Source: Arsenophonus sp. ET-KM2-MAG3 (GTDB taxonomy: Bacteria > Pseudomonadota > Gammaproteobacteria > Enterobacterales > Enterobacteriaceae). From it: DNA of 64,000 nt. The position numbers and the translations under genes were made by a program. This document shows, piece after piece, positions 1 through 64,000 of the stretch. The DNA is taken from assembly GCA_052174135.1 (NCBI GenBank), contig JBQMRZ010000004.1, positions 203,410 through 267,409 on the forward strand. Reading direction: 5' to 3'. Every line of letters begins with the position of its first letter. Position 1 is the first letter of the stretch. The notes under the pieces were generated by a model. That model made no database searches, was not told where the DNA came from, and saw nothing but the letters and a program-made list of their open reading frames with translations.

Positions 1-1
1 A

Positions 2-106
2 TCTATTACTGATCCTTGTTTAGGTTGGCATGACACTGAACACTTACTAATTATATTGGTTGAAGCTGTAAAACATCGTTTTTATAATTATAAAGAAAAA
101 TTTTAA
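2..106 (+). CDS. aroH: 3'-terminal fragment (truncated by the window edge) of class I DAHP synthase
   Basis: Frame 2 reads SITDPCLGWHDTEHLLIILVEAVKHRFYNYKEKF* with TAA at 104-106. It matches the conserved C-terminus of enterobacterial AroG/F/H and is closest to my recollection of AroH (..SITDPCLGWEDTERLV..AVDTRF). The paralogue assignment is tentative. Confidence 0.7.
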   Translation, partial: SITDPCLGWHDTEHLLIILVEAVKHRFYNYKEKF

Positions 107-3100
107 TAGTTATCAAGTTAATTATCAGAGTAAATTTTTTATTATTAATAATAATCTTCTCTAAAAAAAATTATTAAATTTTTAATAAAAATTTAATAAT
201 TTTAAATATTTTATGATTTTTTATTTAAAAATCATATTTTTTAATAATTGCATTTAAGATCTTATCTTATAATTTAAGTTTTAAAAAAATCTATTATTAA
301 TACTGAAAATACAGTAATAATATTAACTAGAGAGAATAAATGAAAATTGATTTTTTTACTATCCAGTAATAGTAAAACTACACTAGCAATATTATTTATA
401 TGAGTAAGTCAATATGATTTAATTAATTTTACAATACGAACAAGTAAGATTTTAATATTCTAAAATAATAGAAAATTTTCTATAAGATTATGAAAATTTT
501 TTTCTAAAAAATATTATGTTTTTATAAACATTTTAAATTTATGGTAATTATTTTTATTAAAATAAATGAATGTAAATAAAGTAAAACAATATATTAATAT
601 TAAAATTTATTTGTGATATATATAGAAAAATACTAAATAATAAAAATAGCTTATTTAAAATGGGTAAACTAATAATCAATAAATCAAGTATTTTTATAAA
701 ATAAATCAAACAATAAAAATATAGAAGATAGTGTATTTGTTTTGAAATTAAAAAATCCTTTATTGGTCATGCCGACAACTAAGAAAATTAGATTGTTTAA
801 TTTAAATAAAACTTAAATTAATCTCTATTGTGCGTTAAATTCGATAATAAAATTATTTATAACATTTTATATAATAAAGAATATTAAAGTAATTAATAAC
901 AAACTTAATGATAAACAAAAATCAAACTTATTAAAATATCAAAATATTAATGAATATAAATACTCTTATTTATACAACAAAATAAAGCAAATTATTTATT
1001 AATGTTATTTAAAATCTAATCTATGTAATAATTTAACTTAATGAATTTTATAAAATTCATTAAGTTTTAATAAATAATTGAAATTAATATAAGTCTATTA
1101 TTATTTTTTTAAGTTAATAGTGAATAAACTCATGAATATTTTTTTATTTTTTTTATTATTTTATGATAAATCATAAACGTATGTATAATCAGGTTATAAT
1201 TATGAGTCACTCATTTGTATTTCAAAGCATCATATGAAATTGGCAATTAAAATAATTATTTTATAAATATTTAGAATGATTTTAATATAATTTAGCATTA
1301 ATAATATTAATTATATCAAGTTTAGCGCTTTAATAAATAAATAATTTTTTAATACTAATGATGTTCAAAAAATCATTAGTTATTCATTCTTTATTAATTT
1401 GAATAATAAACGCAATATATTATATTGTCTACTTGACATAATAAATAATAATTTATTTATTTTTTATTTATTATTTATCTGATACACTATAGCTATAGTG
1501 TTTTATAAAAGATATTTTAAATTTAAAAGTATCAATGATATTGATAAAATATATAAAAATAATATCAAATATTTTTTAATAAAGAACCAATTATGTTGAT
1601 AGATAATAAAATGGAAAAATTAAAAATATGAATATAAACCTCATTAATCTAATAGTCATTAGATTACTAAATGTATATTTTAATCAATCCTTTAAAATAA
1701 TATATTTATGTAATTTTTCTATAAAATATAAAATAATATAATAAAATATACTCAAAATTATTCTATTTATAGTTATTTTATATATTTACTGCTATAATAA
1801 ATTATACAAAGAGTTGTCTTTTTATTAAAAAGAGTTTTATATTAAAAATATAGTATAATTTTAAATAGCATTAAGATCTTTTTTTTAAGAATATTTTTAA
1901 TTAATCATTCCATATAATTTAGAAGTTAATGTTATCTAACGTATATTTTAGATTAAATTATTTTAATATTAATCAAGTAGATATTTATTTATTTAATTAC
2001 TTAAATTTTTCTCTGCTTCAGCTAGATAAATATTTATACATTTTAAATATAAAAACATTAATATTCAGTATATATATAACTTATTTAATACTGAATTTCA
2101 ATGTTTGATTGAATCATAGATTATCTATTTTAATAAACAAAATAGATAAGTTCACGACTTGATTTTTTTTGTTGTATTAAAATTTTATAAACACTTAAAA
2201 TATTTTTTATTAAATAAGTTTTTTAGTATTTATTGATAACAAAAATTTTTTATTCAAAATTAAATTAACTAATAATATAACTTATCAATTATGGAATAAA
2301 AACAACTATATTTATAATTATTTATATAATATTAATCATCTTTTAATTTTGTTACTTATGCAAGAAAAACAGAGTGTAAAATAAATAATTATATTAAAAA
2401 TTTTACTTAATAAAATTATAAAATAATCAATTAGTTAATATTAATAATGAGTTTAAAATTATAATAAATTCTCAATAAATAATTAAGAATAATAATTATT
2501 ACTTGTCTTCTTATGAAAGAAAATCAATCTTCAAGGAAGATATGAGAAGATTTTAAATAAAAGCATTAAAGATATAAAAAGTTTAAATTTTAGAAAAGTG
2601 TATTACTTTATATATAGCATTTGATTATAAAGGTTATTTAATTAAAAATATTTGAGAATTAATTTATATAAATATAACCCTCTTATTGAATGTAAAATTG
2701 AATTTATTATAAAATACTAAAGTTAAAGTAAATAGAAAAACTCAAATAATGCAATAAAATAATTTATTATGTAAAATATAATTATCGTGAATTTTTAAAA
2801 ACTTATTTTTATTAACAAATAAATTTACAATTAGATAAAGAAGTATCATTAAAACTAGTTTTATCAAAATTTAGTAATAAGAATAAAGGATTCTAACAAA
2901 ATATAGATATTAATAATTAACATATGAAATAAAAAAAAAATATGAATTAGATTATTTATAATACAAACGTAACTCAAAAAAAATGAGTTATTTTAAATTA
3001 ATAAGAATCCTGGATATAAATTTTAAATATTTATTTTAAATAAAATAAATATTTTATTAAAGTGATCAATAATACTCAGTATAGTTTCATTACATTAGTT

Positions 3101-3684
3101 TAATATATTTAGTTCATCTAAATAAATTGGAAAATATTAAATCTATTAAGTTTTTTATATAAATGACAATATTTGTTATCTATAAAATAGTTAAATATAA
3201 ATATATTTACTAATCTTATACGTTAAATAAATCTATATATATTAATAAATATTATTTAGTTGATGTCTAAAAATCTTCATGGCAGAAAATTAAGGAATTC
3301 ACTATCATGAAATTAGAAATAATTAAATATATATAAATACTTATACTATTTTTTGTCAGTAATTACTTTTTACAGAAAACTTTTACTTGTTAATAGGTTA
3401 TAATTTATGATAAACTAAGTAAAAATTCTTATATTATAAGATAAATAAATTCAACTAATTTGTTTATTAAAATATTTCATTATAAATAGATTTGATTAAA
3501 ACTGTTTTTAATAAAAATTAAATTACTTATTAATGTTGATGATGAAAAACATAAATTTTATTTAATTTATTTAGTTTACTTGATAAATAATGAATCTTAT
3601 TTCTATAAACAAATAATGAATAATAAATAAAATAGTTGTATAAAAAATTTTTTTTTAACATTTATTTACTCTTGATAGTTATCT

Positions 3685-5262: not shown

Positions 5263-5326
5263 CTAAAAAAAATTCCAAAAACAAACGATAATTTAAAGAT
5301 TTATATAAAAACTGATAAGATTGTCG

Positions 5327-8297: not shown

Positions 8298-9428
8298 TCA
8301 TAATAATATTTTTTTCATAATTTCATGATAAATAAGGTATAATTTATTAAGATCAATAATATTAACACATTCATTTGGTTTATGAATAGTTTCATTTAAA
8401 AGGCCTAATTCAATAATTTGTGCACCCATTTTAGCAATAAAACGACCATCAGATATTCCACCATCTGTTGATAATTGAGGTTGATAATAACAATATTTTT
8501 CTATAGCCTCACTGACAATATTAAATAATTTACCTTTTTTTGTTAAAAATGGATGACCAAATAATGACCATTTAATTTTATAATTAAATTGATATTTTTT
8601 TAATATTTTTTCAACTTTTTGGCGAATTTGTTGATCGGTAAGTACATTACTAAAACGAAAATTAAATTGTATAATTAATTCACTAGGAATAATATTATTA
8701 GTATTATTATCAGAATTAATGTTGAAAATTTGCATACTTGTTGGAGAAAAAGAATGATTACCAATATCCCATTTTTTATTAATCAGTTCATTTAAAAAAG
8801 GTAATGAATTATGTATCGGGTTATTAGCTAAATATGGATAAGCAATATGTCCCTGAACTCCGCAAATCACCACTTTAGCTGTTAATGAGCCTCGACGCCC
8901 ATTTTTAATAATATCACCAAGCTTAATTTGACTAGACGGTTCACCTATTATACAGTAATCAATTTGTTCATTGCGTGCTATTAATTTATCAACAACTTTT
9001 GCTGTTCCGTTAATAGCTTTAGCTTCTTCATCAGAGGTGATCAAAAAAGCTAATCGACCGGTATGGTTAGGAAAATTGCTAATAAATTTTTCAGCGGCTA
9101 TAATCATTGCAGCAAGAGAACCTTTCATATCAACAGCTCCTCGACCATAAAGAAGTCCGTCATTTAATATTGGAGTAAAAGGCGGGTAATGCCAATCTTG
9201 AACTGCTCCTGCCGGAACAACATCTGTGTGCCCAGCAAAGGCTAATGTTTTGCCTTGTTTTCCATGAAGTGCCCATAAATTTGTAGTATTGTTAAATGAC
9301 ATAACTTCAATTGAAAAACCAAGTTTTTTTAATTTATTAATTAAAATAACTTGACAACCATAATCATTAGGGCTAACAGAGGGCAATTGAATTAGTTTTT
9401 TCGTGAGTTTAATAATAGGACAAATCAT
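8298..9428 (-). CDS. dapE: succinyl-diaminopimelate desuccinylase
   Basis: The 376-aa ORF is collinear with E. coli DapE (LAFAGHTDVVP, GRGAVDMKGSLAAM, LITSDEE, GRRGSL, GGISDGRFIA). Confidence 0.95.
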   Translation of the reverse strand: MICPIIKLTKKLIQLPSVSPNDYGCQVILINKLKKLGFSIEVMSFNNTTNLWALHGKQGKTLAFAGHTDVVPAGAVQDWHYPPFTPILNDGLLYGRGAVDMKGSLAAMIIAAEKFISNFPNHTGRLAFLITSDEEAKAINGTAKVVDKLIARNEQIDYCIIGEPSSQIKLGDIIKNGRRGSLTAKVVICGVQGHIAYPYLANNPIHNSLPFLNELINKKWDIGNHSFSPTSMQIFNINSDNNTNNIIPSELIIQFNFRFSNVLTDQQIRQKVEKILKKYQFNYKIKWSLFGHPFLTKKGKLFNIVSEAIEKYCYYQPQLSTDGGISDGRFIAKMGAQIIELGLLNETIHKPNECVNIIDLNKLYLIYHEIMKKILL

Positions 9429-9439: not shown

Positions 9440-9721
9440 TTGATTTATATATTATTAATTTTTATTAAAAAATTAATAATATAATAGTTATTTTGTAGTT
9501 ATCAAGCATGAATATTTAAAAAAATATTTGATATTTTATTTTTAATTTTTTATTTTTTTTAATGTTAAACTTATTAATAATATTTGTTTTTATTCGAAAT
9601 AAAATTTTTCAAGAAATTTAATATTTATTAGTTAAGATAAAAATCTACCTATATAAATATTTAAATGAAAACTAATAATATTATTCTTATAATTATTTTA
9701 TTTAAAAATAAAACAAGTCAT
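9440..9721 (-). pseudogene. yffB: Eroded fossil of ArsC-family protein YffB, the upstream operon partner of dapE in E. coli
   Basis: On the minus strand an ATG at 9721 reads MTCFIFK*NNYKNNIISFHLNIYIGRFLS*. The segment NNI-ISFHLNIYIG aligns with ANNIDYRFHDYRVDG of YffB: N, N, I, F, H and G are identical with one codon missing. About 10 N-terminal codons appear to be lost. The evidence is weak to moderate. Confidence 0.35.
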
Positions 9722-11898
9722 TTTAACTTTAATTTGTATTGTCTATTTTTAAATATGTTAAATTAATAAGTATTATATTTTTTTAAAATAAATTGGTTAA
9801 ATATTTTTTCAAATTTTTTATTTTTTAATAAAATACTAAATATTGTAGTATTATTTTATTTATAATAACTAGCTTTATATAAAAGATTTTTAGTAATTAT
9901 TTATGAATAAATTAATTTTATACATTACAATTAATTAAAGTTAACTGATGATTTTTTTAATAATTTTATATAATACAAATTACTTTATTTTTAATTTTAT
10001 AATCAAGATTTATTATTTTTATAAAAATATAGCATTTAAAATTTTATGGTTAATTTTTGAAAAATAGTTATTTATTTGTTCTTAATTTTAATTACAAAAA
10101 TATAACGAGAATTGATTGGTAAATTCAATTAACTAAAGAATAAAAAACTTAATAGATTTTTTGTTTTTTTTTAACTATTATTTAATTAATTTTAAAATTA
10201 AACACATAAATATTTATACATTTCTAAATTAATGATATTAATCTTCACATATAGATAATCTATTTAACAATAAACTCACGATATATAACCAAATTATCAA
10301 TTATTTATTTTATAAAAATACGAGTTATTCTAAGTTTTTTCGAAAAATTAGTTATTATTTGATATTAAGGATATTAGGTGGTATTTAAAAAATTTTTTAT
10401 AGTTAAATAAGGTATTTGTTTTTTTTAAAAAAAATTAAAACTGAATCAAACTATAATATATAGCTTATAAAATAAAAAAAACAAAAAAATAAAAAAAACA
10501 AAAAATATCATTATAATTTTAATTATTAAAGACCAATTACAGTTTATTTTTTTTTTGCTAATTTTATTAAAAATAAGACTAAAAATAAATTATTATAAAA
10601 ACATAAATTATGAATTATAAAATACCTTAATAAATAATATTTTTTTATTTAGAATTAAAACTCTAATATTTATTTTTTTCAAATTTATTGAATAATTGAT
10701 AGATAAAATAAAGTTCTTTTTTATGCTAGAATGATAATATCAATATAAAATTTATGATTTAAATAACATGAGAGAATTATTATTCTTAGATTGTATTAAC
10801 AATTTTTATAAGAATAAAACTATTTTGTTCTTTTTTTTTGATTTAATAATAAAACATAATTTGTTATAATCATTATTTAGTATAATAGTGTTCAATATTA
10901 TTAATATCTGAATTATCTAGTAAATCTTAGAAATATTAATGCTACATAAATAAATTTAATGAATTCATATTATTTACTTTCATAAAATATATTATCAATT
11001 ATTGATAATTCTTTATATTTTAGGTTAATGGTGTAATATATGAATTTTACTATATAACTAATTATAAGTGAAAAGTAGAATTGAAATATAGATACTTTAA
11101 AAAAAAATCCTTAGTCTCTTTTATTCTAAAAGAAACTTTATAAGAATATTGAGAATGATATAATAAATAATTAATATTTAGTACTAATTCACATAAAGCA
11201 TTTGATGAATAGTATTCGATAATTAATGAATTATATATTCTATATGTATTTAAAAAATACAAGATTTATTAATTGGATTAATTTATTAATTCTTTTAAAT
11301 AAACAAAAATGTGTTTTATAAAAAAATAGGTAATATTTTGATTTTTAAGTATTTTAATATAAATATATTCAATATTTTGTAAATTAATTCTATAATTATT
11401 TAATTGATATCTTTAGTTGAGATAAATAAAAATTAAAATTTTATTTTTTATCATGAAAATTTTATTTTCATGATAAAAATTTTTGACTAGTTTACATGTA
11501 GTAAAATACTCTAAATAATAATGATCATGATGTTGTAATTTTTTTTTTGAAAAAAAACTTGTTTTATTTTATTTTGATCAAATATATATTTGATATTCTG
11601 AGTAATTTAATTTTTTAATAAAAATATTATTAGCTAATATACCATAAAAAAGTAAATTATACTTAATTTTATAAAATATTATTTATAGTCTTAGTATCTA
11701 ATGAATTAATATCATAAAATTAAATATTTTGTCTATTATTATATTTTAATTTAATTAAATTAATTTGTTATTTTTTGTCATATATCTTTTTATTTAATTG
11801 ATTTTATAATTATATTTTAATCAAAAATTATTGATAATAAGATATAAATATATTTATATTTTATTTACAGTAAAGTGTTTATCAAAAAAAGTTATCTA

Positions 11899-12798: not shown

Positions 12799-13854
12799 AG
12801 TTAATCCTTGTTATAAATAATGCTTTTATAGTGATGATTTTATATAAATAATATAAAAAATAGACAAAATAGTAAAAAATTTATTTAGATTAAGGGAGCG
12901 TAAAATCACAAAATAATGTTTAAATGTAATTTATTTTTAATAGGATTTTATTTATAAAAAATAAAATTTTTTATTTTCATGGAATTAATTACCTTTCATT
13001 AAAAAACAGAATCATAATATCATATTAATTACTGAATTTTCTTGATAACTCAAATTTATTAAATAAGTTAATTTTTATCATTCAAGCTATTAATTATATT
13101 AATTTAATGATCATAATAATAATTATTTAGATAATACTAATAAATAAATCAATACTTTATAACTAATTTTATTCCTTTTAAAAATTGAATAAACAGTTAT
13201 AAAATTAGTTACTTTAATTTATTATAAACATTATTGATTAAATGATATTAAGATATGAATGTATTTTCATTAAATGATTACATGAAAATAAAATTGATAT
13301 TTTTTTGTTATTGAGTAATTTTTAGATTAAAATAATTACTTCATTTAAAGTAATATAAATAAATAGATTTAGCAAATTATTGTTTCATATTTTAGAGCTG
13401 ACATTTAAGAAGCACTTTATTTTATGTTATAACAATTAAATTCTATGTATTTTTATACACATAATCTTATTGAATTTATTTTTAAATAATAAAATAAATT
13501 TTTTATAAATATTAATTAAAATATTAATAAAACATCTTATGAAGAAATTTATGATATATTGCATTGTATTAATTTAATAATTATTCTATTTTTTAGATCT
13601 CCATCAGAATATAAATGGTGTCTAATAATATCAATTATATTATAATAAGCATAAACAACGATATTATATTTAATTAAATGTTTAGTTTATTTTTATCACT
13701 TTGCAATTTAAAGTCAATTTTAAATTAATGAATTATATTAATTGACTTATTAATGATTACTAAAGTTCTAAAAAATTATTTATATTTTATTATATTTTTA
13801 AATTAATTTATTAAATTTTATTTTATAATCATAAGTTCAATATCAGCTTATTCC

Positions 13855-13897
13855 TTTTGTGCTATAGATATCTGTAACAGATATCTATAGCACAAAA
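13855..13897. repeat. Perfect 43-nt palindrome with 21-bp arms and a single central A
   Basis: The sequence is ttttgtgctatagatatctgt a acagatatctatagcacaaaa. All 21 pairs were checked base by base, and the arms contain 5 G:C pairs. T-rich sequence precedes it and an A-run follows it. It lies in the lysO-ybjG desert. Confidence 0.9.
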
Positions 13898-16339
13898 AAA
13901 AGTTAGAATAGAAAATATACTAGATTAGTAATCTATAAATCTTTATATCAATATTCCAGTAAAATAGTGTGTATATTCTACTTTTTATACAAGAATAATA
14001 TTAAATATAGAGTTTTATGAAACGGGATGAATATTATCCTAAATAATAATAAATAATGATTATTTTATTTGTTATTATTACTTCAAAAGTTATTTTTCTA
14101 TTTTATTATCTCTCATGAACATGAATATCAGAATATTTCAAATTATAAAACACAAAAAAATAAAATTAAAATGTTATCATCTTGCATTCATTTTGATAAA
14201 ATGGTTAAAAGATATGTTATTTTGACAATTTTATTATAAAATATTTAAAATAAATATAGTCATTAAAGGTTATTTTACTTATATGTAATAAAGTTTGATT
14301 ATAAGAAAATCATATATGTGTGAGTAAATTAGCGTTAATATACTATTAAAAAATTTTTATTTATTTAAATAAAATTAACATATCTGATATATTTCAGTGG
14401 TTTAAAAATAGAATTTTACTAAAAATAGTATTTTATCTATAAAAATTTTACATATTTGTACGGAAAATGAATTTAATAAAGATAATATTAAGATAAAATT
14501 ATTTATTTGAATAAATTTAAAATTTATATTGCTATTATCAAATATAATAGATCATTATATGATAATGAAAATTAAAAATTTTTTTATTATGTCTGATATC
14601 AATAATTAAATAGAGTGCTATAAGAAATAGAATAAATATAAGATATAATAAATTTTGTACTAAAATGACTCATAAAATACTTTTTGTTCCATTTACAATA
14701 AACATTTTATTTTTCATAAAGTACCAATTAATAATAAGTATTATTAAAATTTTTTTATTTATTGTAGCTTTAATTTTATGTTATCACTTAAATAAATTTA
14801 GATATGAGCTAAAAATCTTTCTCATAATAATTCGTGTTAATTAACGCTAACATAAATTATGTAAAATAATACAATACTAAAGCTTTATTGGTAGTGAGAA
14901 ACTTCTATTTCTATTATTCTTTCTTATTTCGATAATTGAATAATTAATTATCTATTTTTATATTTTAATTATCCCTTTATATTACATTTTATTATTTATT
15001 TTTAATAAAATAATTATCTTTAATTATTAAACTCTATAGTTCCTATTAAGATAAAACTTAAAACATAATTAAATATTAAAATTTTAATTTATATAAATAA
15101 AAGTGGATTTTTAATTTCTTAAAGAGAATAAATATAAATTGAGATATAAATACTATTATTACTTTCACTCAAAATAATTAATACTTTTTATTTAAATATT
15201 TAAAATATATGATAGTGATATTTGTTTTCTTTATTAAATAAATTATTTGCTGATAACATCAGTTTTTAAAAATCAATTAATTTTTATAAAAAATCGCTAT
15301 TTCAAATTTAAAAGTAAAACAAATTATATTTTTTTATTTCAATAATATTTAATTATTCATGATGGTTAAATAATTTGATTTATTTTAAAATAGATAATTA
15401 AGATTTTTAGATTTTTTATATTAACTAAGTTTTAATTATTTTCTTACCAATTAATTTAAAAAATTGAGATTAGATAAAATCTAAATCAAATAATATTAGT
15501 ATAATTGTTATTATAAATCAATTATAATAATAATTATTATGTATAAATATTTTTAATAAAATTAAATTATTGATTTAATATAGTTTTTTAAAACAAATTA
15601 ATAATATAAATATCTACTTATTTTTTAATTAATGAACAATATATTTATAATTATGTTAATTTTAAGATTAAATAAAAAATTTATTATCTTAAAATTAATT
15701 TAAACAAAATTATTCATCATTTAATTTAATTTATTGACTTTAAATCATAAATCAAAAAATATATTTTAAAAAATATATTTTAATAAAAGATAATAAATAA
15801 TAAATACCCTTAATTTATAATATTTTAAAAGTTATTTAGTTATTAAAAAATCTGATATTTTAAACTATGATCTATTTAAGATATCTTTTTATTCATTAAA
15901 ATCTAAGTAATCTTCTAGATTTAAGAATAATTTGATTTTTCACTTATATTGTTATTAATATTTATGAAAACAAAGATCATGATAATTACCATATTAATTT
16001 GTTACTCTTAATAACTGAAATAATTAAATTATCTTTAAATTAAATTACTTTTTAAGGATACCGATATATTATTTCTCTATTTAAAGAAATATTAAGAATA
16101 ATTTTGATTTTTTAATAGTTTTAATTAAATAAAATAATTTGAACATTAACATATAATTTCATTTGACTCTAAAGTACGAAGTAGATTTTTTTAAAGAAAT
16201 GATTAATAATATTATTTATATCTAATAAATGCAAAATTTTTATAAAATTTTTTTAAAATTACTTTACATTACATAAAATATTTATTTTTAATAATTTGAT
16301 ATACAATTATTATTGTAAAGATTTAATGAGGATTTTATT

Positions 16340-18659: not shown

Positions 18660-20027
18660 ATGATAAACATTCATAATTAAATTAATTAAGCGCTTTAAAT
18701 ATCATAATTTCAAAATATTTCGATTAATTTATTAATAAGAATTATTTTTATTTTAAATAAAAAACTAAATAAAATACAAGTACTTATTAGAATATAAGTA
18801 ATTTTTTATTAATATTTTAAATTTAATTTAAATGAAGATAGTTATTTTATACTATTTAATTAATGAAAATTTAGAAATAATTTTTTATTAGCAATCTAAT
18901 CGAAAAGAGATAATGATTTTAGTAAAATATATTAATGTTAATATTTATGATTAATTATCTTTAAACTAGTAAATAACAAAAAATTAATATTTGTATTACT
19001 AAAGATATTATAGATTAACTAATAATTACATATTTCAATAAACATTGATTTTATATTTATTATTAGTAGTAATGTTAAATAAATTCAATGTTTATTGTTT
19101 TATTTTTTCTTGATTTATTAAAAATAATAAAATTATATGTATTTTTAAAATATGCGTTATTGTATTTTTATTATTTATTGGTCTAAAATAAAATGATTAA
19201 TATTTTATTAGCATTGATTAAGTAAACTAGATATTTTTATAGTATTAAATTTGATTAATATTTAAAATAAAAAATATCATAATTAATCAGTTATATTTTC
19301 ATATATATATATTATTCATCATCTAAGTATTATCTTATTACTATTTTTAAAATTTTTAAGTATATTAATTTAAGATTTAATAGCCATCCTAATAAACTTT
19401 AATTAAATGATAATAATTTGTTGATAGTATTCTATATAAATCTCACTTCTTTTTTTTTCGAACAACTAAAGTCTGATCATGTATAGTTTTATTATCAATA
19501 AAATTTATAATTATTTAATAATAAATCAATAATATAAATAATATTTATTTAAAAATAATAAAATTAATCAAATTAACTTAAGTAAAATTTAATTATAAAT
19601 AAATTATTTTAATTTTGTTTTAATTAATTTAACTAAAAATTCTATCCTTAATATTTATTTTCTGATCATAAAGTAAATTAAGATTATAGTTATAATTAAC
19701 AATTTTTCTTCAAAATAAAATAAATTTTACTTTTGTATTAATTGATTACATAAAAAAAGTATAAATATTCATTATAGTTAAATATTTTTAATATTTTGTT
19801 ACTTTTATGATTAAAGTTTTATTTAATGGAATAAAAATATAGATTAAATTGTTAACTATTAATTATAAGAGTAACAAAATTTTTTAGAAGCTATAAACTT
19901 AGATATTTATCTAAAAAAAATATTAATATATTAAGTTTAATAAATAATTAGACTCTCGTTCTGTAACATTACTTAATGTTTTATAGTATTTAAAATATAT
20001 ACATTAATAATGGGATTAACTATTTTT
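18660..20027 (+). pseudogene. sdaB: Eroded fossil of L-serine deaminase, the downstream partner of sdaC
   Basis: An ATG at 18660, 13 nt after the sdaC stop, opens a frame with no indel through at least codon 73. M1, I2, S15, R44, V47, Y50, I64 and N73 are identical to SdaB as recalled. The best block is 18786-18809, IRI*VIFY against TRVVVDVY. The frame contains many stops, and the 3' boundary is only a length extrapolation. Confidence 0.35.
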
Positions 20028-20779: not shown

Positions 20780-20824
20780 AAATTATTATTTTTATCTAAT
20801 ATGTATAGATAAAAATAATAATTT
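20780..20824. repeat. Perfect hairpin with a 19-bp stem and a 7-nt loop
   Basis: The sequence is aaattattatttttatcta atatgta tagataaaaataataattt. Arms are 20780-20798 and 20806-20824, checked base by base, with one C:G pair. Confidence 0.85.
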
Positions 20825-45202: not shown

Positions 45203-46171
45203 CAATCATAAACCTTATATATATCAATACTAAAATTGGACATGATAATTTTCTTAATTTATATTTTATATATAAATTTTCATTGTTTTTTATTCTTCTT
45301 ATTAATTTAAATTTTCTAAATAATTAATCGCTTAGATAATAAACTTATTTTTAAAAAAATATATTAATCTTAACATACACTAAACTTTGATTTAATCAGA
45401 TTAAAATACTTATTAATTTACGTTACTAGCAAAAAAAATAAAGTTATATTTAATAATGATTTTATTAGGAAAATGTAAAAATAACTAAAATATTATTTTG
45501 TTATATTAATATTACTGTTAATTTTATCTCTATATTAATTATAATGTCTAACTATATACAAGAGAAAATATTTTCTTCATACATTTTGTTTTTTTAAAAA
45601 AATTATATAATAAATTAACTAGTTATTTTTATTTTATTAATTTAACAAAATTATACTCTTTATTTTCACTGGAAATATTTTGTCTTGTTTGAACATTCCG
45701 ATCAACTTTGTAATATTTTAAGTGGTAATTAAAGAAAAAATACAGTAATATACTCTGATTACTAGTATAAAAAATAAAGTAATTTAATCCTATTATTACT
45801 GTGAAACAGTTATGAATAAAATCCTTGTGTAACGATACTTTATTTTATTTTAGTTAATCATTAAATTTTCTTAACTATATTTAATAGTCAGTACTATTTA
45901 TTTTTACTAACGTAAAATAATGATATGAAAGAGATAGTTAACTTAAAAAGAATTTTTAATAAGATTTATTAAATTATAAAATAAGCCTATTTATCTTATA
46001 GTTTTAATATTACAGCAATTAAATTTTTAACGATATTATCGAATATTTATTTAGACTCTAAAGTAATAATTTGCCATTTAAATCTAATAATTTTAATTAT
46101 TTTAATAAAGTTAGGGGATAATAGGGGGGGTCTTATTTTTTTTTTGCTTACTTTTAAGAAAATTTGATCAT
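45203..46171 (-). pseudogene. cysK: Eroded fossil of cysteine synthase A
   Basis: cysK is the upstream neighbour of ptsH in E. coli. An ATG at 46171 (minus strand) opens a frame that stays in register with CysK, with no net indel, for at least 286 codons. At identical codon numbers M1, K3, P16, L20, L29, K42 (the PLP lysine), I45, I50, L65, S70, L88, I98, R101, K102, V176, V185, A281 (gcg) and E286 are the same. More than 20 in-frame stops fall within the first 106 codons. Confidence 0.55.
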
Positions 46172-49100
46172 AATTTACATAAATAAATATTTTTTTTATG
46201 ATAATTAATATTATAAGTTATCTTATATACTCAAATAGTATTTTATTGCCTTAAACACTTCTTCTTTATATATTCCACTAAAATATTATAGCTATTAATT
46301 TTTATAAAAATTTTAATTATATTTTTAAAAGAAAAGCTTTGTTTGTTATAAATTTTGAATCTGTAAAAATGCACTATATAAATAATTATATAAGAATAAT
46401 CATCAATAATAATCATTATTTAATTGTTGTATAATTAAAAGTATAAATGCATATCAGTAATGATATCTCAGGCTTACACATTTAAAGATATTAATAACAT
46501 TGATTTTTTGTTAATAATCTTACAAAGTAATTATTTAAAATAATAATTACTTTGTTTAATTAAGAAGTGTAAGAATTAATAAATACATCATATATCAACA
46601 TAATAACAATTTGATTTTTTATATTTTTAATAAACGGGGGATTATTTATCATAAATAAATTGATATTATTAATTATATCTAGAAAAGCTTTTAGAAGCTA
46701 TTATTATATAGTGAAATCCTAAGAGGATTGTTATAATAAAATGTGACCTATAATTAAGTATCATTAATTTTATAATATCAATTATTATTTTATAATTTTA
46801 TTGAATATATACTCTATAAAAAGATTATTAATACAAATTCTTCAATAAATATACAAAATATACAATGAAAAAATTTTAAACGATTAATTTTAAACTTCTT
46901 GATAAAAGCACTAGAACGCTAAATTAAGCTTATATTTTTAGAAAAATGAAAATTTTTAATAAAAAACTATTTCAGTATATAAAGCTAATAATATTATTTA
47001 AAAAAAATTATTCATAATAAATATGCTTATTAATAAAGTTAATAAGAATTTTTTAATAAATTATTTTTTTTAAATAACTCACTTATACACTAAAATAGAT
47101 TATAGGGTAACTTAAAATACTTAAATAAATAATTTTGATAGAAAATTTCTAAAATTTATAATTTTAATTTGTAAAGAATTATCTGATTAATCATTATTTT
47201 TTATATAGTACTTTTATGCAAACTATATTAATGTAATGAAAAAAAAGAAGTTAATGAGGGATTATTAATATAAAAGTTAAATAAATTATTTAATATTCTT
47301 TTCTAATATTTCTTTTAGTTGCTTTTATATTAAAAATTAAAACTTTTAAAATAAATAAAATATTATCTAAATCAATAACGGATATTAATTTGAATAAAAG
47401 TATGAGCGATAACTACGCTTAGGAAATTAAAAAAAGAATATTAAAAATATTGATTGTAGTAAATATATAAAACAAAAGTAATTAGAAATATCATATGGTA
47501 AATAATAAATAAATAAATAATATGATAAATTTCATTAATTTGATAAATATCAAATATTTTTGTAAACTGTAATGTTTATATTTTATGATAAAAATCAAAA
47601 AATTATTATTAATAATAAACATTATTTATAAAAAATAAAATATAGAATATTAATAATGTTAATAAAAATTAAAAATAATCTTTTAATTAAAATACAAAAT
47701 TTTTTAAAAAAAAAGATAAATAATCTAGTTAAATTATAATAAAAATTAAATTATATATTATAAAATAATTATAATATTTATTTTTTTTGGTTTTATAGAT
47801 TCAATTAATTTGAAATAAATTTATTTTGTTGTTTTTAATTTATGCTAATATTTAGCGGTATTTAATAAATTAGTGGTATATCTAGCTTGGTGTCTATCGA
47901 TTATAGACTATAAAATAATTATACTTAAAATATTAAAAAATATTATTAATAAGTAGGATTATCAATTATATACTTCATTAAAGTATTAAGGTTTTAATAA
48001 AATTGATTGTTAAATCCTCCTTTTTTAATAGAAACAACATTTCTACATAAATTACAATAATCGCTAAATTTGATAGTTAATATTAAAAAATAAACTTTAT
48101 AATTTATTTAATTAATTGTAATTTTAATAAAAAAATTACTAACTGTTATTATTAATATTAATTTGTAAATTCAAATATAACATAAGTTATTTTAGTATTA
48201 AACATTAAAAATAGTGCTAACAAATACACATTATAATAAAATTATTAAAACTTTTATTATCAAAGTTTATTAGTAACGTTAATACTAAATAATCTTCTTT
48301 TTTATTTGTTATTTTAGTAATATGCTAATTTTGATAAATCGATATTATATATGTTTATTATTATAATATTTTAATAGAATTTTAAAATAAACATCAAGTA
48401 TATTTAGTGTATATAAAATATTATTAGCATAAAATGTAAATATTAATAGTCGATAATATAAATTATTACTTATCAATTTATTTTAAAAATCTTCCTAAAG
48501 GTATTAAATTTTGTTCTTATTGTAACTTTAAAATTCTGAACAATAAAATGATCAATTATATTCTGTTCAAATAAGATCTAACTAATTGTATTTTAAAATT
48601 AATAAAATTTTTTTTAACTATCTTGTTATTAAATTTTATTATCATTAAATCTTAAAACATTAAATATATTAAAATATCTTAAGCTAAAACTTTAAAATAA
48701 TTTAATATTTGCAGATTAAATTAGTGATACATAAGTTTTATATCTCATAAAAACAAATAAGTGTTATTACTTAGATGATTAAAAGTATTATATAGATAAT
48801 AGAATATTTTTTAATGAAGCGCTAGAAAATTTTAATAATACCTAAACTTCTCTTTTTTATGTATTTCCGATTAATTTATTATTTTATACATACAGATTAC
48901 TAATTTTTTATTAAAATATAAAAATTATTAATTATAATATTGTAAAATACAAGATAATGCATAAATCTTGTCTTTTTATTACTTATTAATACATTAATCA
49001 ATGTATTAATAAGTAGATTTTTATAGCCTAAAAATAAATAACTTGATATTCAATGTTCCTCATAATAAGTACTTATTAGATATCATTTTACGTATATGAA

Positions 49101-50859
49101 AATATCAAAATCTAGATATATTAAAATAACAAACAATTAAAGGATAAATATAACTACTTTATTTTATATTTGGAAAGCTCTATTATTAATTAATTTTGTT
49201 CTTTAATAAAAAAATCTTTATTAAAAAGATATCAAATACTTATATGTAAAAAAAGAAATCTTTTAAGTATTTATACTATTTTAATACCATTACAAGTAAT
49301 CAAAAAAAAAATAAAAATTTGTTGTTTAACTAAAAAGTTAATTGAGGATTCAATCTCATATTAATTATAAGTATTAAATTAATATATACTAAAAAGTCAA
49401 TAACTACCCTCTTAGATAAATATATAAATACTTATAAGATGAAAATCAGCTAGTTATTTATTTTTTATTTTACTTTTAGTAAAATAAAAAATAATTTTAT
49501 TCAAGATATGAAAACTGATGAAATAATAAGCGTTTGATTTATTAAAGATGCCTCTTTAATATAAAATTAAATCTGTTAATTTCTATTAAAATAGACAATA
49601 AACTATTCTAATTTAAATTTTCTCTTTTTTTAAGAAACATGTATTATAAATAGATATTAAGTTTTACTTATCAGTTATTTATTAAATAAATGATAATATT
49701 GAATTTTACTTACTTTTATTTTAAGAGAATAGATATCACAGGCAATAAAACACTACATTAAAATTAATTGTTATTTAATAAGAAATAATAAAAATATTTT
49801 TTTAAATTAATGTAATTTTAAAAAATTCAACTTAATGTTTTATTGAAAAATTTAATATATTTTATTAATTCCTATATAATCATTAATTAATTAATAACAT
49901 TATACAGCATTATCAATTATTATGAAATTTAACTATCAGAAGTACTTTTATAAAAATACTTAGATTTATAGCCACTAATTTTCAATATAGGAGAAATAAA
50001 TTATTTTTTGTAAAAAGATAGTGTCGATTTATTACAAATTTTTAACACAATAACTCTTCTTAAAATATTAGCCACTGATATTGGATTAAATTCCTATAAT
50101 GTCATTTATTACTTGTAATAATTTAAAAATTAATTAACTTTTTGATTTTTTTTAGTTATGAACTTTAATGATATTAAAGATATATATATTAAAATAAATA
50201 ATAATTTTATTGAAATATTTAAAGGCATTAATTTAAATAAAAAAGCTTTATTTATAATAATAAAGTATAATGGTTTAAATACTCTATAATTCAAACCCAT
50301 GCTGAATAACGTTATTTTAACATTAGTAAATTAAATAAATTAGATAACGTAATATCATTTATACTTATACTTATACTTATTCAAGTATATTATCATTAAT
50401 AATTAAATTATTAACTATCTGTAATTATTAACATATTATTAGATTTAGAGTAAATAAAAAAATAACATATATAATAAAAAATTATAATTTTCGTATTATA
50501 TAATAAAGTGATAAAATAAAGAATAGAATAATTGCTTACATTAATTATATTCTAAGATGTTTTTATAATTTAATATAAAATTAATAATATTAAAGTATAT
50601 ATTTATTACTAATGAGCATTAAATTTACAAAATTTATATTTTATTAAAATCAAGCTTTATAAAAATTTATAATCTAATAAAATTTAAGCGATATTTGATG
50701 AGTTTTAATTCATATATCTAAAATATCATTTACCATCAGATTATTTTTTGTGTAATTAAAAATTAAATTATTGTAGTCACTCAGAGTCCTAATGTTAAAT
50801 CTTAATTAGATATATAATTATACTGATAATTTAATTATAAATAATAATGAGGATAAATA

Positions 50860-52064: not shown

Positions 52065-53351
52065 ATGCAAGCCATAACAATACAACCAATCTCTTACATT
52101 GAAGGTACAATTAATCTTCTTGGCTCAAAAAGTATTTCTAATCGAGTATTATTATTAGCTGCATTAGCACAAGGTAAAACTACACTAACCAATCTTCTCG
52201 CTAGTGAGGACATTCGTTATATGCTTAATGCTTTAACAATATTAGGCATTGAATATCAATTATCTAATAATCTCACAACATGCACTGTAAAAGGCCTAGG
52301 GCACTGCTTTAATTATAAAAAAGGTTTAGAGATATTTCTTGGTAATACTGGTACAGCTATGAGATCATTAAGTGCTATTCTAGCATTAGCTGACAATGAT
52401 ATTATCTTAACTGGAGAGCAAAGAATGAAAGAACGCCCCATTGCTCATCTCATTAATGCACTTCAAGAGGGCGGTGCAAATATTGAATATCTTAACAAAC
52501 AAGGTTATCCGCCAATAAGAATAAAAGGTGGTTTTGTTGGTGGTTACATTACAATAGATGGAAGCGTTTCTAGTCAGTTTTTAACTGCACTTTTAATGAC
52601 TTCACCTTTAGCTCCTAGAGATACGATTATTCAGATAAAAGGAAGGCTTGTTTCTAAACCTTATATTGACATTACTATTGCATTAATGCGTAGTTTTGGC
52701 ATTGAAGTAATAAATCAATATTATTATCGTTTTCATATTAAAGGCAAACAACAATATATTTCACCAAAGAATTATCTTGTGGAAGGTGATGCCTCTTCAG
52801 CATCTTATTTTTTAGCTGCTGCAGCAATTAAAGGTGGTAAAGTTAAAGTAACAGGTATTAATAAGTATAGCTTACAAGGTGATACGCAATTTTCTTTTAT
52901 ACTTGAAAAAATGGGAGCTAAAATACATTGGGGTAAAGATTTCATTGAATGTCAAAGAGGTGATAAGTTGATTGGCATTGATATGGATATGAATGCGATC
53001 CCAGATGCAGCAATGACGATTGCAATTTTAGCTCTATTTGCTAAAGGAAAAACAATTATTCGTAATATTTATAACTGGCGTGTAAAAGAAAGTGATAGAT
53101 TAACTGCGCTAGCAACTGAATTATCAAAAGTTGGTGCTACCATAGAAGAGGGATATGACTATATTTGTATTTTTCCACCAAAATTATTAAAGTATGCTAA
53201 AATAGCAACTTACAATGATCATCGTATAGCAATGTGTTTTTCACTTGTTGCTTTATCAGATACTCCAATCACTATTTTAGATCCAAATTGTATAACTAAA
53301 ACTTTCCCAGACTATTTTAATCAGCTAAAAAAAATAAGTTATCGATATTAG
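52065..53351 (+). CDS. aroA: 3-phosphoshikimate 1-carboxyvinyltransferase (EPSP synthase)
   Basis: The 428-aa ORF is collinear with E. coli AroA ([71 protein letters not shown]). Confidence 0.95.
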
Positions 53352-56410: not shown

Positions 56411-56438
56411 AAGAATTAATAGATTTAATTTATTTATT

Positions 56439-56709: not shown

Positions 56710-58652
56710 GCTTATAAAGATCTTTTTAAAAATAAAAAATATTAAGTAAATAAGAGTAATGTTATGTAGACTATATTAAACTAGGTTAGTAACTAAAGTA
56801 TTAGTTTAGAATAAGATAACTTTGTTTTATAAATAAATTTTTTTAGTTAATTAAAACTTATGCATAATTTATTAAATCACGGTAATTTAATTTGTAATTT
56901 TATGATATAAATAAATATTTATTAGAAATCTTTTTTTAAAATAATTTCATTAATTAATAAGATGATAAATAAATGTGTTAATTATGAAGTAATTTTATGC
57001 TTTAATATTCTGAAAATATTCATTATTGGAATTAGTATTGATATAACAATTATAACAAAAAATAAATATTACGCATTTAATAACTATCTTAAATTTATAT
57101 ATTAGAATAGCTTATTTATTTTTATTTATTTTGTTTAATAGAATTTAATTTTTGTTATTTCTATTTATTTAAATTAATAATATATCGTTAAAATAAGCTA
57201 TATTTATTTTATCATTATACCTTTTTTTATATTTAGTAAAAATATTTACTTTATTTTATCAAATAGAGTATCATTCTAAGTATTATTTAATTTTAATACT
57301 TTAACTTCCTGTATTAATATTTATTAATAAATTTTAGTTTTTAAAATTTTTTTTTATTAAATTAATATCTTATTTTTTTTAATCAATTATAGAGATTAAG
57401 CGTATCTAGCTATATTTAATTATATAGTTAGATATTTTTAGTCATTTATAATTCAAAATGCTTATTTTAATAGTTCCAATTTAATAAATTTTACTTAAAT
57501 AAATTGTTAATATTATTTTTTTTTGATTAATTTATGCTTGCGATATCAACTAAGTTTATTTATAAAAATTCCATTAATTATAGTTTTATATATTTATATT
57601 TTAAATATGAAACATAAAGTTATCATTTGATATATTAATCACTAATAAAAACTTTATTTTAATAAATTTATCGCTAACTAATATTAATTATAGAATATTT
57701 ATTTAATACTAATTATTTTTAAATTATTAAAATTTGACTAAATGAATTATTATATAATAATGGTTATTGTTGGTTTATTTATTATTAAAAATTGATATTT
57801 TTTTTTAAAATATTAGGTGATGCTACTTATAATATAAAAATTTTTATTTTTTTTTAAATTAATCATTTTAGATATAGAATATAGATAAATAATTATTATT
57901 AAAGAACATAAAAAATGTTTATTTATCACATTAATATTTCATTCAAAGTATTACTAGAAATACTATTTTCTTTATCTATAACAATATTTATCTTTTAATA
58001 GCTGAAAGATTATATTTAATTATAATTTATATTAGTTATATTGATGATCTAACTAATTTGCTGTTAAACTATTATTAATTAATAATTAAAATATTTTTGA
58101 TAAATTTTTTACTATATAAACATTTATTAAAAATAGCAGAAATTATACCTTAAGTATTATAAACAAATAACTCTAATCAAAAATAATCACATAATAATAA
58201 ATTATTTGCAATAAAAATTAATGATAACTATCATTCAATTATTTTATGTATAGAAATTAAAAAAGATAAGAAGGAATTTATTCATTTATTAATAACAGAT
58301 TTACCGAACAATTTATTATGAATCCATTACTATGGTAACAATATTTAGTCAAAACTGATTTTATTCAAGCAATTAAATTATAATATTTATTTATTTACGT
58401 TGTTTTATAGCTACGTAATGAATACTCACTTTCTGATAAAATATATAATTGATAGGTTAATTTTAATGTAAATTAGTTAATTATAATAAAATTAAGATAG
58501 ATTATAGCGTAATTCTGTTTTAATTTTTATTAAAATAATAAGTTATAGATAAGAGGTTTATTCTTTTTTGTATCACCACCAGTTTGTTATTTAGATATTT
58601 CCTTAGTAAAATAAATAGTTTATTTTCATCGGTATTTAACAAGATAATGATA

Positions 58653-62034: not shown

Positions 62035-62214
62035 ATGGATTATCGTTTACTTGATATTATTGCTTGTCCTATTTGTCATGGAAAACTTATTTTTGATAAA
62101 CAAAATTTAGAACTTATTTGTAAATTTGATCATATTGCTTATCCAGTTCGTAATAACATACCTGTATTATTAAGAGAAGAAGCTCGACAGTTCCCCTTAA
62201 ATGAAGAAAAATAA
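62035..62214 (+). CDS. ycaR: Trm112-family small zinc-ribbon protein (UPF0434)
   Basis: This 59-aa ORF is absent from the supplied track because it is under 60 aa. It reads [59 protein letters not shown], against E. coli YcaR MDHRLLEIIACPVCNGKL..ELICK.D..AFP.R.GIPVLL. It sits in the conserved position upstream of kdsB. Confidence 0.85.
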
Positions 62215-62215
62215 T

Positions 62216-62971
62216 ATGTTTACAGTAATCATTCCTGCTCGTTTTACTTCTAAACGTTTACTTGGTAAACCATTAGTTGATATTCATGGAAAACCTATGA
62301 TTATTAGAGTGATGGAAAAAGCAATAATGTCCGGTGCAACGCGCGTTATTGTTGCTACCGACCATCAGGCAATATTTGATACAGTAAAAGCGGCTAATGG
62401 TGAAGTATATATGACTAGTGTTGATCATAAATCAGGCACTGAACGATTAGCAGAGCTTATTGAAAAATATAAATTTCCTGATGAAGAAATTATTATCAAT
62501 GTTCAAGGTGATGAACCTTTAATTCCACCAGAAATAATTAATCAATTAGCTAATAATCTTTCATTAAATAACGTTAATATGGCGACATTAGCTACTCCTA
62601 TAAATAGTCAAAATGAAGTATTTAATCCAAATATTGTAAAAGTAGTGATAGATAAACAGAGTAATGCTTTATATTTTTCTAGGGCTTCTATTCCATGGGA
62701 ACGTGATCGATTTTTAATAACTAAAACAGAAATTTTGAAATATTTTTTACGTCATATAGGTATTTATGCTTATCGTGCTCATTTTATTCGTCGTTATATT
62801 CAATGGTCAATAAGTCCATTAGAAAAGATAGAAATGCTTGAGCAGTTGCGCGTACTATGGCACGGCGAAAAAATTCATGTTGCTTTAGCGCTCAAAACAC
62901 CAGGATTAGGAGTGGATAATCAACAGGATCTTAATGTAATTCGTAGTAATATCTTAGCTGATAAAAATTAA
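62216..62971 (+). CDS. kdsB: 3-deoxy-manno-octulosonate cytidylyltransferase (CMP-KDO synthetase)
   Basis: The ORF is collinear with E. coli KdsB from [10 protein letters not shown].. ([45 protein letters not shown]). The start is set at 62216 to match the homologue. ATG 62201, overlapping ycaR by 14 nt, is the alternative. Confidence 0.93.
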
Positions 62972-64000
62972 AATTATATTATTTTTTTAAAAAAAATTGC
63001 TCTATTAGATAGAATCGAGTATTAGAGATTAAATATTATCAACGTTATTGATAGATATAATAAGCAAACAAATTCATACTAATTACATTTAAATATCAAA
63101 AAAATAAATTGATAAGAAAATTTCTTGAAAAATTACAATGTTAAAGTTATGATAAATTGATTTATATATAAAATAATTATTTTGTATATTTTAAAAATAA
63201 AGAATTTTTTAATATGTACTATATAGTTACTTAAAATCGCTGATAAAAGTTGACCAAAATGATTTTATTTTAAAAATATTTTTTATTTTTTTTTTTAATT
63301 TAGTGAAAGTTGTTTTTTAATATTCTTAACTTTAATTTTAACTTTATTTCTACCTTAATTTTATTTATTATATTACGATCATTATCGTAACTAAAGTTAC
63401 TTTAATATTCAGATATTAAAAATAAAAGAAATACATTTTCATCATATAAGCAAATTATTATAAATAAGAATAATGTTTATTTTTTATTTTAGGATTATAG
63501 GTAATTTTTTATTATTTAAATGCATGGAATATATTAATGTCTATTAAGTTATTTTAATAATATAAAATTCATAGTACTCTTTAATTTTAAATTCTTTTAT
63601 AGAAAAAATTTATCTAAAATAGATATGAGTTTAATAACAAACCTATTTAATTAAATTAAAAAAATAATATTTATCGTTGTTTTTAGTAATTAATTATTAA
63701 AATTGTATTTTTAAAATAAATAATTTTATATCATATTGCAATCTTAATGACATTACAGATAAGTTTGTAAACATAAAAAATATTGTGTAGATATAACTAA
63801 ATAAAAAAATGTTTAGCTATTATTTAGTGAAATTTAACTTTTATTTAAGTTATTATTCAGTAGTATGTTAAAGATATTTAATATGAAAATATGAAGAATG
63901 TTTTTAAGACAATTTACTTTATAGGATATTAAATTATTGTTCATTATATTTAGAAAAATGGTTAAATTTTTCATATTTCATTCAAGAGATATTGTTTAAT

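Follow-up and report, generated by a model that had tools for sequence, protein, structure and literature searches.

What are the long gene-free blocks that separate intact genes in Arsenophonus sp. ET-KM2-MAG3, and where did they come from? We analyzed a 64-kb stretch of this metagenome-assembled genome (MAG; contig JBQMRZ010000004.1, positions 203,410 to 267,409), hereafter the window, which contains 29 genes and, counting from 500 bp upward, 13 gene-free blocks of 0.6-5.8 kb. Non-genic DNA in intervals of 150 bp or more adds up to 34.1 kb. These deserts have a guanine plus cytosine (GC) content of 13.5% (A 0.432, T 0.433, G 0.068, C 0.067), whereas the genes have 24-37%, about 30% overall. 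An earlier reading of the DNA letters, here called the original prediction, had described 29 genes, 13 blocks and extreme AT richness, and this description holds after we recomputed counts and composition. It also took the deserts to be collinear, almost indel-free fossils of ancestral genes in Escherichia coli order. We consider it likely that the window comes from a recently host-restricted Arsenophonus, an insect symbiont, and that the deserts are at least partly neutrally decaying pseudogenes at their ancestral sites, driven toward AT and keeping their length. The gene order that they record is that of Arsenophonus.

Plain tblastn, run with BLOSUM62 and with masking and composition adjustment switched off, and again with word size 2 at E<=50, gave one match in the deserts, to crr (42574-42861, E 2.6e-8), and matched none of the other six fossils named in the original prediction. 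We therefore built a decay-aware aligner. It scores the step from amino acid to decayed codon under a Hasegawa-Kishino-Yano (HKY) model (kappa 6, equilibrium GC 5%, t 0.3), adds E. coli codon usage, a BLOSUM-mixed ancestral residue and a floor on the mismatch penalty, and permits codon indels and +/-1 frameshifts in local protein-to-DNA alignment. Reversed proteins, shuffled proteins and dinucleotide-shuffled deserts served as nulls. With Arsenophonus references, 2418 shuffles gave a null score of at most 29.3 bits, and z values are given against dinucleotide-shuffled deserts.

Searching every desert on both strands with 214 E. coli proteins, in an unbiased scan, gave 9 of 5564 scores above the maximum of the reversed-protein decoys, 30.6 bits. 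Five of the nine are synteny neighbours (ycaO 87.4, crr 83.6, focA 52.8, ycaI 33.7 and ypeA 33.6 bits), three fall at one hot spot (24455-24745, minus strand), and one is non-syntenic (yfeY, 33.3 bits, in the ihfB-msbA desert). Arsenophonus references increase the scores and bring in extra fossils compared with E. coli references. Altogether 15 segments exceed the maxima of the shuffled and reversed-protein nulls, with z of 6.7-48. The comparison with shuffled deserts, which had been proposed as the check, comes out in favour of the assigned fossils; these cover about 6 kb only, or 17-18% of the desert sequence.

The crr fossil predicted after ptsI is confirmed, by the tblastn match and by a decay-model alignment of codons 20-169 at 42407-42849 on the minus strand (97.8 bits, z 48). 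In nucleotide alignment it reaches upstream of 42849 and measures 507 nt over its whole length, against 510 nt in A. nilaparvatae, with 196 mismatches; four insertions add 9 nt and six deletions remove 12 nt. Three further fossils lie between crr and hemF, all on the plus strand: cysM (41875-42264, codons 17-144, 35.0 bits, z 9.3), yfeY (41389-41647, codons 113-198, 34.8 bits, z 10.7) and the acetyltransferase gene ypeA (40720-41125, codons 10-143, 55.3 bits, z 17). The ypeA fossil spans 406 nt against 402 nt, with 6 small indels and 12 stops. The C-terminal half of cysM is deleted (~425 nt), leaving 140 nt to the crr stop where about 565 nt are expected. About 374 nt of the yfeY N-terminal part and spacer are also deleted, and a search at the locus gave no signal for that N-terminal part. 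This order agrees with A. nilaparvatae (locus L009), which has ligA-zipA-cysZ-cysK-ptsH-ptsI-crr-cysM-yfeY-ypeA-(647 bp)-hemF-der-bamB. The hemF-ptsI interval is 2882 nt in the window and 3720 nt in A. nilaparvatae.

Fossil order and strand agree with A. nilaparvatae, A. nasoniae, Candidatus Phlomobacter and two other Arsenophonus assemblies. A. nasoniae (locus L087) carries guaB-guaA-LPMO-trypsin-HerA-DAHP synthase, and Ca. Phlomobacter carries dapE-yffB-gerE-maeB...xseA-orf-guaB. An intact Arsenophonus has trmJ-iscRSUA-hscBA-fdx-iscX-pepB-sseB'(144 aa)-ndk-rlmN, and a further Arsenophonus assembly has lysO-artPIQM-ybjN-ybjC-grxA-ybjG-sdaC-sdaB. The synteny of the fossils is of Arsenophonus type, not E. 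coli type, and the frame of the original prediction fails at both crr-cysM-yfeY-ypeA-hemF-der and isc-pepB-sseB'-ndk. Given the Arsenophonus order, the expectation of amiA and the supposed deletion of sseA, yfhM and pbpC drop out.

The amiA fossil predicted before hemF gives no signal (z <=1.1), and A. nilaparvatae has no amiA open reading frame (ORF) between ypeA and hemF. The ypeA-hemF spacer is 604 bp in the window and 647 bp in A. nilaparvatae. The A. nilaparvatae spacer (L009 14801-15447) has 26% GC in a 38%-GC genome and contains no ORF. This spacer may represent a gene that decayed earlier, perhaps amiA, but a tblastn search with the E. coli AmiA protein found nothing significant in it. 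The pepB-ndk gap had been read as the scar of a large deletion that removed sseB, sseA, yfhM and pbpC. We find that this 761-nt spacer (29061-29821, plus strand) is collinear with the spacer of an intact Arsenophonus, which is already only 862 nt long and holds a truncated sseB. A remnant of Arsenophonus SseB in the window spacer is a hint only (z 3.2-3.8, 1/100). The aroA-cmk gap, also mentioned in the original prediction, is 177 nt. A xseA fossil beside guaB gives no signal (z <=0.6). Measured from the guaB start, the far end of xseA lies ~2.5 kb away in Phlomobacter; given the Arsenophonus gene order and a guaB-dapE gap of 1.5 kb in the window, a full-length xseA is impossible there. That gap gives no fossil signal over its whole length, and dapE is inverted relative to guaB when set against Phlomobacter.

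Four predicted fossils stand in part. For the isc operon before pepB, iscX is found at full length (27366-27607, plus strand, codons 1-81, 48.6 bits, z 18.7-20.8), at 242 nt against 243 nt with one frameshift and 5 stops. The fdx fossil (27205-27362, plus strand, codons 52-105) scores 20.0 bits in a restricted search (z 4.8, 0/200) and only z 1.8-1.9 across the whole desert; its end is 1 nt off the position predicted by the iscX anchor. The rest of the operon (iscR, iscS, iscU, iscA, hscB and hscA) does not exceed z 2.1 even with Arsenophonus references. The iscX fossil is also present in a relative of the ER lineage (L096, 31.1 bits). Among isc genes searched in ER-lineage and ET-YP4 relatives, iscX is the only one found, and only in the ER lineage, which has a 10-kb desert upstream of pepB.

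For sdaB after sdaC, N-terminal codons 17-98 are present (18845-19100, plus strand, 44.8 bits, z 16.5 with Arsenophonus SdaB), but codons 99-455 give no signal (z 1.4). A weak remnant of yffB (ArsC family; 9555-9638, minus strand, codons 58-86, 18.4 bits) lies directly upstream of dapE, a position that fits the yffB-dapE arrangement of Phlomobacter. It reaches z 4.0 (0/200) only in a restricted 470-nt search, and z 1.2-2.0 across the whole desert.

For cysK before ptsH, only C-terminal codons 270-313 are found (45453-45584, minus strand, 36.6 bits, z 8.6-9.1), and not the 286 codons in register that had been proposed. No signal comes from codons 1-269, whether along the fossil diagonal or away from it. 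On that diagonal they score -92 bits, against -95 +/- 15 on random diagonals, with 13 identities in 269 codons. Next to this fossil, about 1.2 kb (45585-46765) up to the expected focA end has no match; the cysK N-terminus, cysZ, pflB, pflA, dmsA and ycaK are all negative there. It is probably the junction of a rearrangement that joined ptsH-cysK to focA-ycaO-serC.

The reading of the deserts as complete, collinear and nearly indel-free fossils of E. coli-order neighbours, each in a single frame over hundreds of codons, draws support from crr at 507 of 510 nt, from the small net length change (+0.7%) in the detected fossils, and from iscX, the cysK C-terminus and the sdaB N-terminus at the predicted places. 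Against it, xseA and amiA are silent, six isc/hsc genes are silent both here and in a relative, most of cysK is at chance, and frameshifts recur at intervals of about 140 nt. The genes follow the Arsenophonus order, with no amiA beside hemF in A. nilaparvatae and no room for xseA. At four of the seven loci the reading is largely refuted, and we regard it as very unlikely. Collinearity with the ancestral order stands for the assigned 17-18%, but it cannot be extended throughout the deserts, since most of isc, the cysK N-terminus and the guaB-dapE gap are silent.

The preferred reading, of neutrally decaying pseudogenes at Arsenophonus sites, is carried further by the pattern of decay. Over 2736 nt aligned to intact Arsenophonus genes, the fossils have 55.9% nucleotide identity, with 0.51, 0.58 and 0.59 at codon positions 1, 2 and 3. 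Similar identity at all codon positions is the signature of neutral evolution. The AT-ward single-nucleotide decay described in the original prediction is borne out: 789 of 1207 differences (65%) run from GC to AT. The rates are 0.56 for G->A, 0.54 for C->T, 0.19 for G->T and 0.26 for C->A. G/C sites are retained at 16-22% (about 19%), and 78% of A/T sites are unchanged. Fossil GC is 0.12-0.16, against 0.35-0.40 in the reference genes, and a single fossil carries up to 28 in-frame stops.

Length is kept without being indel-free. The fossil alignments total 5165 nt against 5130 nt of reference and contain 69 small indel events, or ~1 per 75 nt; 37 of the 69 are +/-1 frameshifts, about one per 140 nt (~47 codons). 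The terms "almost indel-free" and "one frame" are not tenable at these numbers. The claim of minimal net length change within fossils is sustained (+35 nt, +0.7%). Insertions and deletions nearly cancel, so spacing appears conserved although no single frame persists. Larger losses are discrete deletions, as had been proposed; the geometry of the fossils reveals events of 0.4-0.9 kb, namely ~-940 nt in a HerA-like gene, ~-374 nt at the yfeY N-terminus and spacer, and ~-425 nt in the C-terminal half of cysM.

We propose that the genes, once inactivated, drifted to about 13% GC, chiefly by G->A and C->T transitions and then by G->T and C->A transversions, and that these AT-ward substitutions produced stop codons throughout. 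Small indels (1-5 nt) built up at ~1 per 20-30 observed substitutions and almost cancel in this lineage, so that surviving fossil segments retain their ancestral length. Bulk DNA loss proceeds via occasional deletions of 0.4-0.9 kb, sometimes larger.

Relatives of the window allow a direct comparison of DNA loss. GuaB, PepB and SdaC of the window are 100% identical to proteins of Arsenophonus sp. ET-DL9-MAG3 / ET-LJ4-MAG3, and GuaB of A. nasoniae is 90% identical. Serratia symbiotica SCc and SsCs are rejected as the source of the window, on GC content and on protein identity. We took the desert-bearing ET-YP4-MAG3, with PtsI 92% identical to that of the window, as the sister lineage. ER-HX2-MAG3 is more distant (2.03-Mb chromosome, PtsI 79% identical, deserts of 10-14% GC). 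A literature search found no publications naming these ET/ER MAGs. Comparisons of the window with relatives used blastn at +2/-3; scoring at +1/-1 gave hundreds of meaningless ~60%-identity alignments in AT-rich DNA.

Collinearity between the window and the ET-YP4 loci extends over the stretches rodZ-msbA and ybjG-der. Matched desert intervals amount to 20,975 nt in the window and 13,583 nt in the sister, a loss of about 35% in the sister. One clean 3.7-kb sister deletion (window 46356-50028 vs L007 ~8341-8355) removed the ycaO and focA fossils, traces of which persist in the more distant ER-HX2 genome. Desert identity to ET-YP4 is mostly 83-85% in pairwise alignment (range 75-85%) and 76-81% in four-way alignment, against ~89% in gene-dominated stretches. 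In the same sister, aroA consists of three ORFs (L007 5043-6334), where the window has an intact gene of 428 aa (52065-53351); this looks like a recent pseudogenization specific to the ET-YP4 lineage.

We polarized indels with loci of the ER lineage and an intact Arsenophonus as outgroups, over five intervals covering ~6.4 kb of the window. Intervals differing by kilobases (e.g., gpmA-pepB) were excluded from the counts, since global alignment scatters large deletions into small gaps. On the window lineage fall 22 deletions, none longer than 12 nt and 46 nt in sum, and 10 insertions (18 nt), a net change of -28 nt. On the sister lineage the deletions number 76, reach 177 nt and remove 1022 nt, and 24 insertions add 46 nt, a net change of -976 nt. 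Window and sister differ by 1083 mismatches in the polarized intervals. By these small, alignment-dependent counts, the window lineage shows a mild excess of deletions (about 2:1 in events) with negligible DNA loss, and the sister behaves classically.

The deletional-bias model of Mira, Ochman and Moran (2001) is said to predict net shrinkage by small deletions. Set against it, the 22 vs 10 events and -28 nt over ~6.4 kb in the window lineage differ from the 76 vs 24 events and -976 nt of the sister. Tentatively, the ET-DL9/ET-LJ4 lineage may have almost ceased losing neutral DNA (~0.05 nt/substitution), with ET-YP4 losing ~35x more from the same decayed deserts; we hold this as a possibility, and a somewhat doubtful one. 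In the preferred reading, the low rate of loss in the window lineage would be a property of its replication and repair machinery.

The same comparison bears on whether the deserts are retained for a function, as regulatory, structural or nucleoid-organizing DNA. Their persistence in at least three related lineages and the near absence of net loss in the window lineage would fit such a role. Yet the sister lost ~35% of the same intervals, including the 3.7-kb deletion, and kept the flanking genes and their order. Desert identity between the sisters, at 76-85%, is below the ~89% of gene-dominated stretches, decay is equal at all codon positions, and no RNA families are present: Rfam has no matches in the window at gathering thresholds, and ARAGORN predicts no tRNA or tmRNA genes in the window. 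Retention for a function is extremely improbable.

The deserts might instead be mostly AT-rich filler from slippage, small duplications and unidentifiable insertions, with gene remnants only as islands. About 82% of the desert has no assignment, insertions are nearly as common as deletions in the fossils, and ~820 nt near guaA have no counterpart in A. nasoniae. The stretch at 19500-21390, in particular, is only ~8% GC, is rich in short tandem duplications (2-3.6 copies with a period of 20-35), and resembles slippage-grown low-complexity sequence rather than a gene fossil. Against filler as the general explanation, desert intervals are no longer than the ancestral gene-bearing ones (2882 vs 3720 nt; 761 vs 862 nt), polarized insertions are few and <=5 nt, and a fossil was usually found wherever a suitable reference existed beside an intact anchor gene. 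Self-comparison of the deserts detects no dispersed repeat families or mobile-element genes; it gives low-complexity AT-rich matches and palindromic self-matches only, with tandem repeats that are short (2-8 copies). An origin of the deserts as junk derived from repeats, insertion sequences or prophages is excluded. We consider filler unlikely for most of the desert, and give slippage-grown filler a modest probability for a minority of it, especially 19.5-21.4 kb.

Several points weigh against decayed ancestral genes as the origin of the deserts. Only ~6 kb of the 34.1 kb is positively assigned, and the unassigned ~82% includes the tandem-duplicated stretch of 8% GC just described. The well-conserved iscS, iscU and hscA and codons 1-269 of cysK are silent; preservation at the level of crr would give >100 bits. 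In the gpmA-pepB desert, GC skew suggests descent from minus-strand genes rather than from isc. The references were few: 214 E. coli proteins, drawn from six chromosomal regions, plus about 45 from Arsenophonus. The decay-model parameters were tuned on crr alone, and every other fossil is independent of that tuning. The polarization of indels relies on MAFFT alignments of AT-rich DNA and ~130 events, and the compared genomes are MAGs. We still judge neutrally decaying pseudogenes to be the likely content of at least part of the deserts, and the remaining ~82% is presumably of the same origin as the assigned fossils.

The gpmA-pepB desert has further features of its own. Its GC skew between 22 and 27 kb is -0.11 to -0.31, like that of minus-strand genes. 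Within it, a coding-like stretch on the minus strand (24455-24745) has one frame that draws 28-34-bit matches from the mutually unrelated yfgM, iscU, guaB and eutD; it is probably a fossil of some minus-strand gene. An aroG-like match adjoining gpmA is marginal (28 bits, z 2.7).

The intact genes of the window run in the order DAHP synthase end, guaA, guaB, dapE, a Lys_export gene, ybjG, sdaC, gpmA, pepB, ndk, rlmN, rodZ, ispG, hisS, yfgM, bamB, der, hemF, ptsI, ptsH, serC, aroA, cmk, rpsA, ihfB, msbA, lpxK, ycaR and kdsB. The window opens, at 1-85, with the final ~26 codons of this DAHP synthase gene, which belongs to the aroG/F/H family (tblastn E 1.5e-4); an intact copy of it adjoins the guaA-side desert, likewise in A. 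nasoniae and Phlomobacter.

That desert holds two fossils. A remnant of a HerA/DUF87-like ATPase gene, which in A. nasoniae is located between the DAHP synthase gene and guaA, has an N-terminal part (362-466, plus strand, aa 8-42, 31.9 bits, z 9.7, 0/200 shuffles in a restricted search) and a C-terminal part (609-884, plus strand, aa 404-495, 41.0 bits, z 12.1, null maximum 29.3). The C-terminal part measures 276 vs 276 nt with 4 small indels and 5 stops, and about 940 nt are missing between the two parts. A fossil of a trypsin-like serine protease gene follows on the minus strand (995-1601) and is syntenic with A. nasoniae. Its main segment covers aa 120-249 at 1389-995 (54.0 bits, z 15.3), and its N-terminal part covers aa 34-88 at 1601-1441 (24.7 bits, z 6.2, restricted search). 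The whole DAHP synthase-guaA interval is 3600 nt here and 3794 nt in A. nasoniae. This near-equal length is partly coincidence, because the ~940-nt loss is offset by the ~820 nt between the trypsin-like fossil and guaA that have no A. nasoniae counterpart.

Two transporter fossils lie near dapE, both on the minus strand. The ATPase gene of an ArtP-like ABC transporter (9824-10207, aa 107-230, 40.0 bits, z 12.6) spans 384 nt against 372 nt, with 10 small indels and 13 stops. An ArtQ-like ABC permease (10441-10638, aa 65-130, 31.8 bits, z 7.6) is tentative because the match is hydrophobic and of low complexity.

The ptsH-serC desert contains focA and ycaO fossils on the minus strand. The focA fossil (47041-47478, codons 49-194, 52.8 bits, z 17.5) measures 438 vs 438 nt, with 2 frameshifts and 11 stops. 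The ycaO fossil (47847-49611) covers codons 235-572 at 48866-47847 (87.4 bits, z 31.6; 1020 vs 1014 nt, 14 small indels, 27 stops) and codons 13-68 at 49611-49448 (25.4 bits, z 4.4, restricted search). The remaining parts of this desert give no signal for pflB, pflA, cysZ, dmsA, ycaK or ycaP. The comEC-like ycaI is found on the plus strand at 58193-58518 (codons 617-725, 33.7 bits, z 6.7), with a weaker middle segment at 57056-57157 (codons 217-250, z 3.2, 3/200, restricted search). LPMO, maeB, the GerE-family regulator, ycaQ, ycbJ, trmJ, suhB, zipA and ligA give no signal at their expected places.

A few local features stand out in the deserts. A near-perfect inverted repeat, GTGCTATAGATATCTGT / ACAGATATCTATAGCAC, lies at 13849-13884 and is followed by eight A; it forms a relatively GC-rich island. 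The desert around it (12799-16339) is also where the strand changes: ybjG and sdaC run one way and lysO, dapE and guaBA the other, and an intact Arsenophonus has lysO, ybjG and sdaC on one strand. The ET-DL9-MAG3 contig that bears guaB begins at the equivalent of window ~14458. The strand switch is either an inversion breakpoint or an assembly join. Homopolymers of G7 and C6 occur inside the 13%-GC deserts, in AGGGGATAATAGGGGGGGTC (46107-46176) and in AACCCCCCTTAC (~42900, at the start of the crr fossil), where, compared with the intact gene, the C-run is inserted.

The deserts are, at least in part, eroded pseudogene tracts of a reductively evolving endosymbiont, a known process, with similarity to genes found for ~6 kb only. 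To call them unusual for bacteria, as the original prediction did, overstates the case, as long eroded intergenic regions have been described in Serratia symbiotica SCc and SsCs and in Arsenophonus CJ. S. symbiotica SCc, a co-obligate symbiont of the aphid Cinara cedri, is 38.7% coding, with intergenic regions that average 1.7 kb and have GC below that of genes; they are read as ancient genes eroded by gradual pseudogene degradation, and BLASTX, Pfam and Rfam detected no traces of coding homology in them (Lamelas et al. 2011, PMC3213167). The window shares with SCc a low coding density and, probably, an origin in an enterobacterial symbiont that became host-restricted recently. Unlike SCc, 17-18% of the desert is assignable here with a decay-aware model and close references, GC is 13.5% against about 26.5%, and the genus is Arsenophonus.

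Arsenophonus CJ, a co-obligate symbiont of the aphid Ceratovacuna japonica, has an 853-kb genome of 18.5% GC that is 59.9% coding with 11 annotated pseudogenes; its low density was read as ongoing genomic erosion, and the study reported neither what the deserts contain nor an indel spectrum (Yorimoto et al. 2022, PMC9672956). It shares genus, extreme AT richness and low coding density with the window, but its genome is smaller and denser, and by PtsI the window lineage is nearer to the ET-YP4 and ER-HX2 MAGs. The "genomic wastelands" of S. symbiotica SsCs from Cinara strobi occupy a large genome that is ~26% coding and consists mostly of pseudogenes and unrecognizable non-coding DNA; at 40% GC, many of its pseudogenes are recognizable by BLASTX and synteny (Manzano-Marin et al. 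2018, PMC6125246). In the window, unlike SsCs, composition has been driven almost to equilibrium. In Mycobacterium leprae and Rickettsia prowazekii, gene-by-gene inactivation was followed by slow erosion, and non-coding DNA has been interpreted as degraded genes (reviewed in PMC3899985).

Low-density symbiont genomes are usually said to hold genes eroded beyond recognition. Mutation-aware alignment still reads part of them at 13% GC, and the decay can be dated as near-saturated at G/C sites (about 19% retained). Added here are a partly readable record, a measured neutral substitution and indel spectrum in an uncultivable symbiont, and a contrast in DNA loss between lineages. A practical lesson is that E. 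coli gene order guides poorly here, and that fossil calls made by eye at 13% GC require calibrated nulls. The still tentative contrast in DNA loss bears on how universal and how fast bacterial deletional bias is. If it is true and genome-wide, the lineage pair would be a natural experiment for finding the genetic determinant of bacterial deletional bias (e.g., among replication, repair or recombination genes). The kept deserts would then also document, in legible form, which genes the free-living ancestor carried and in what order.

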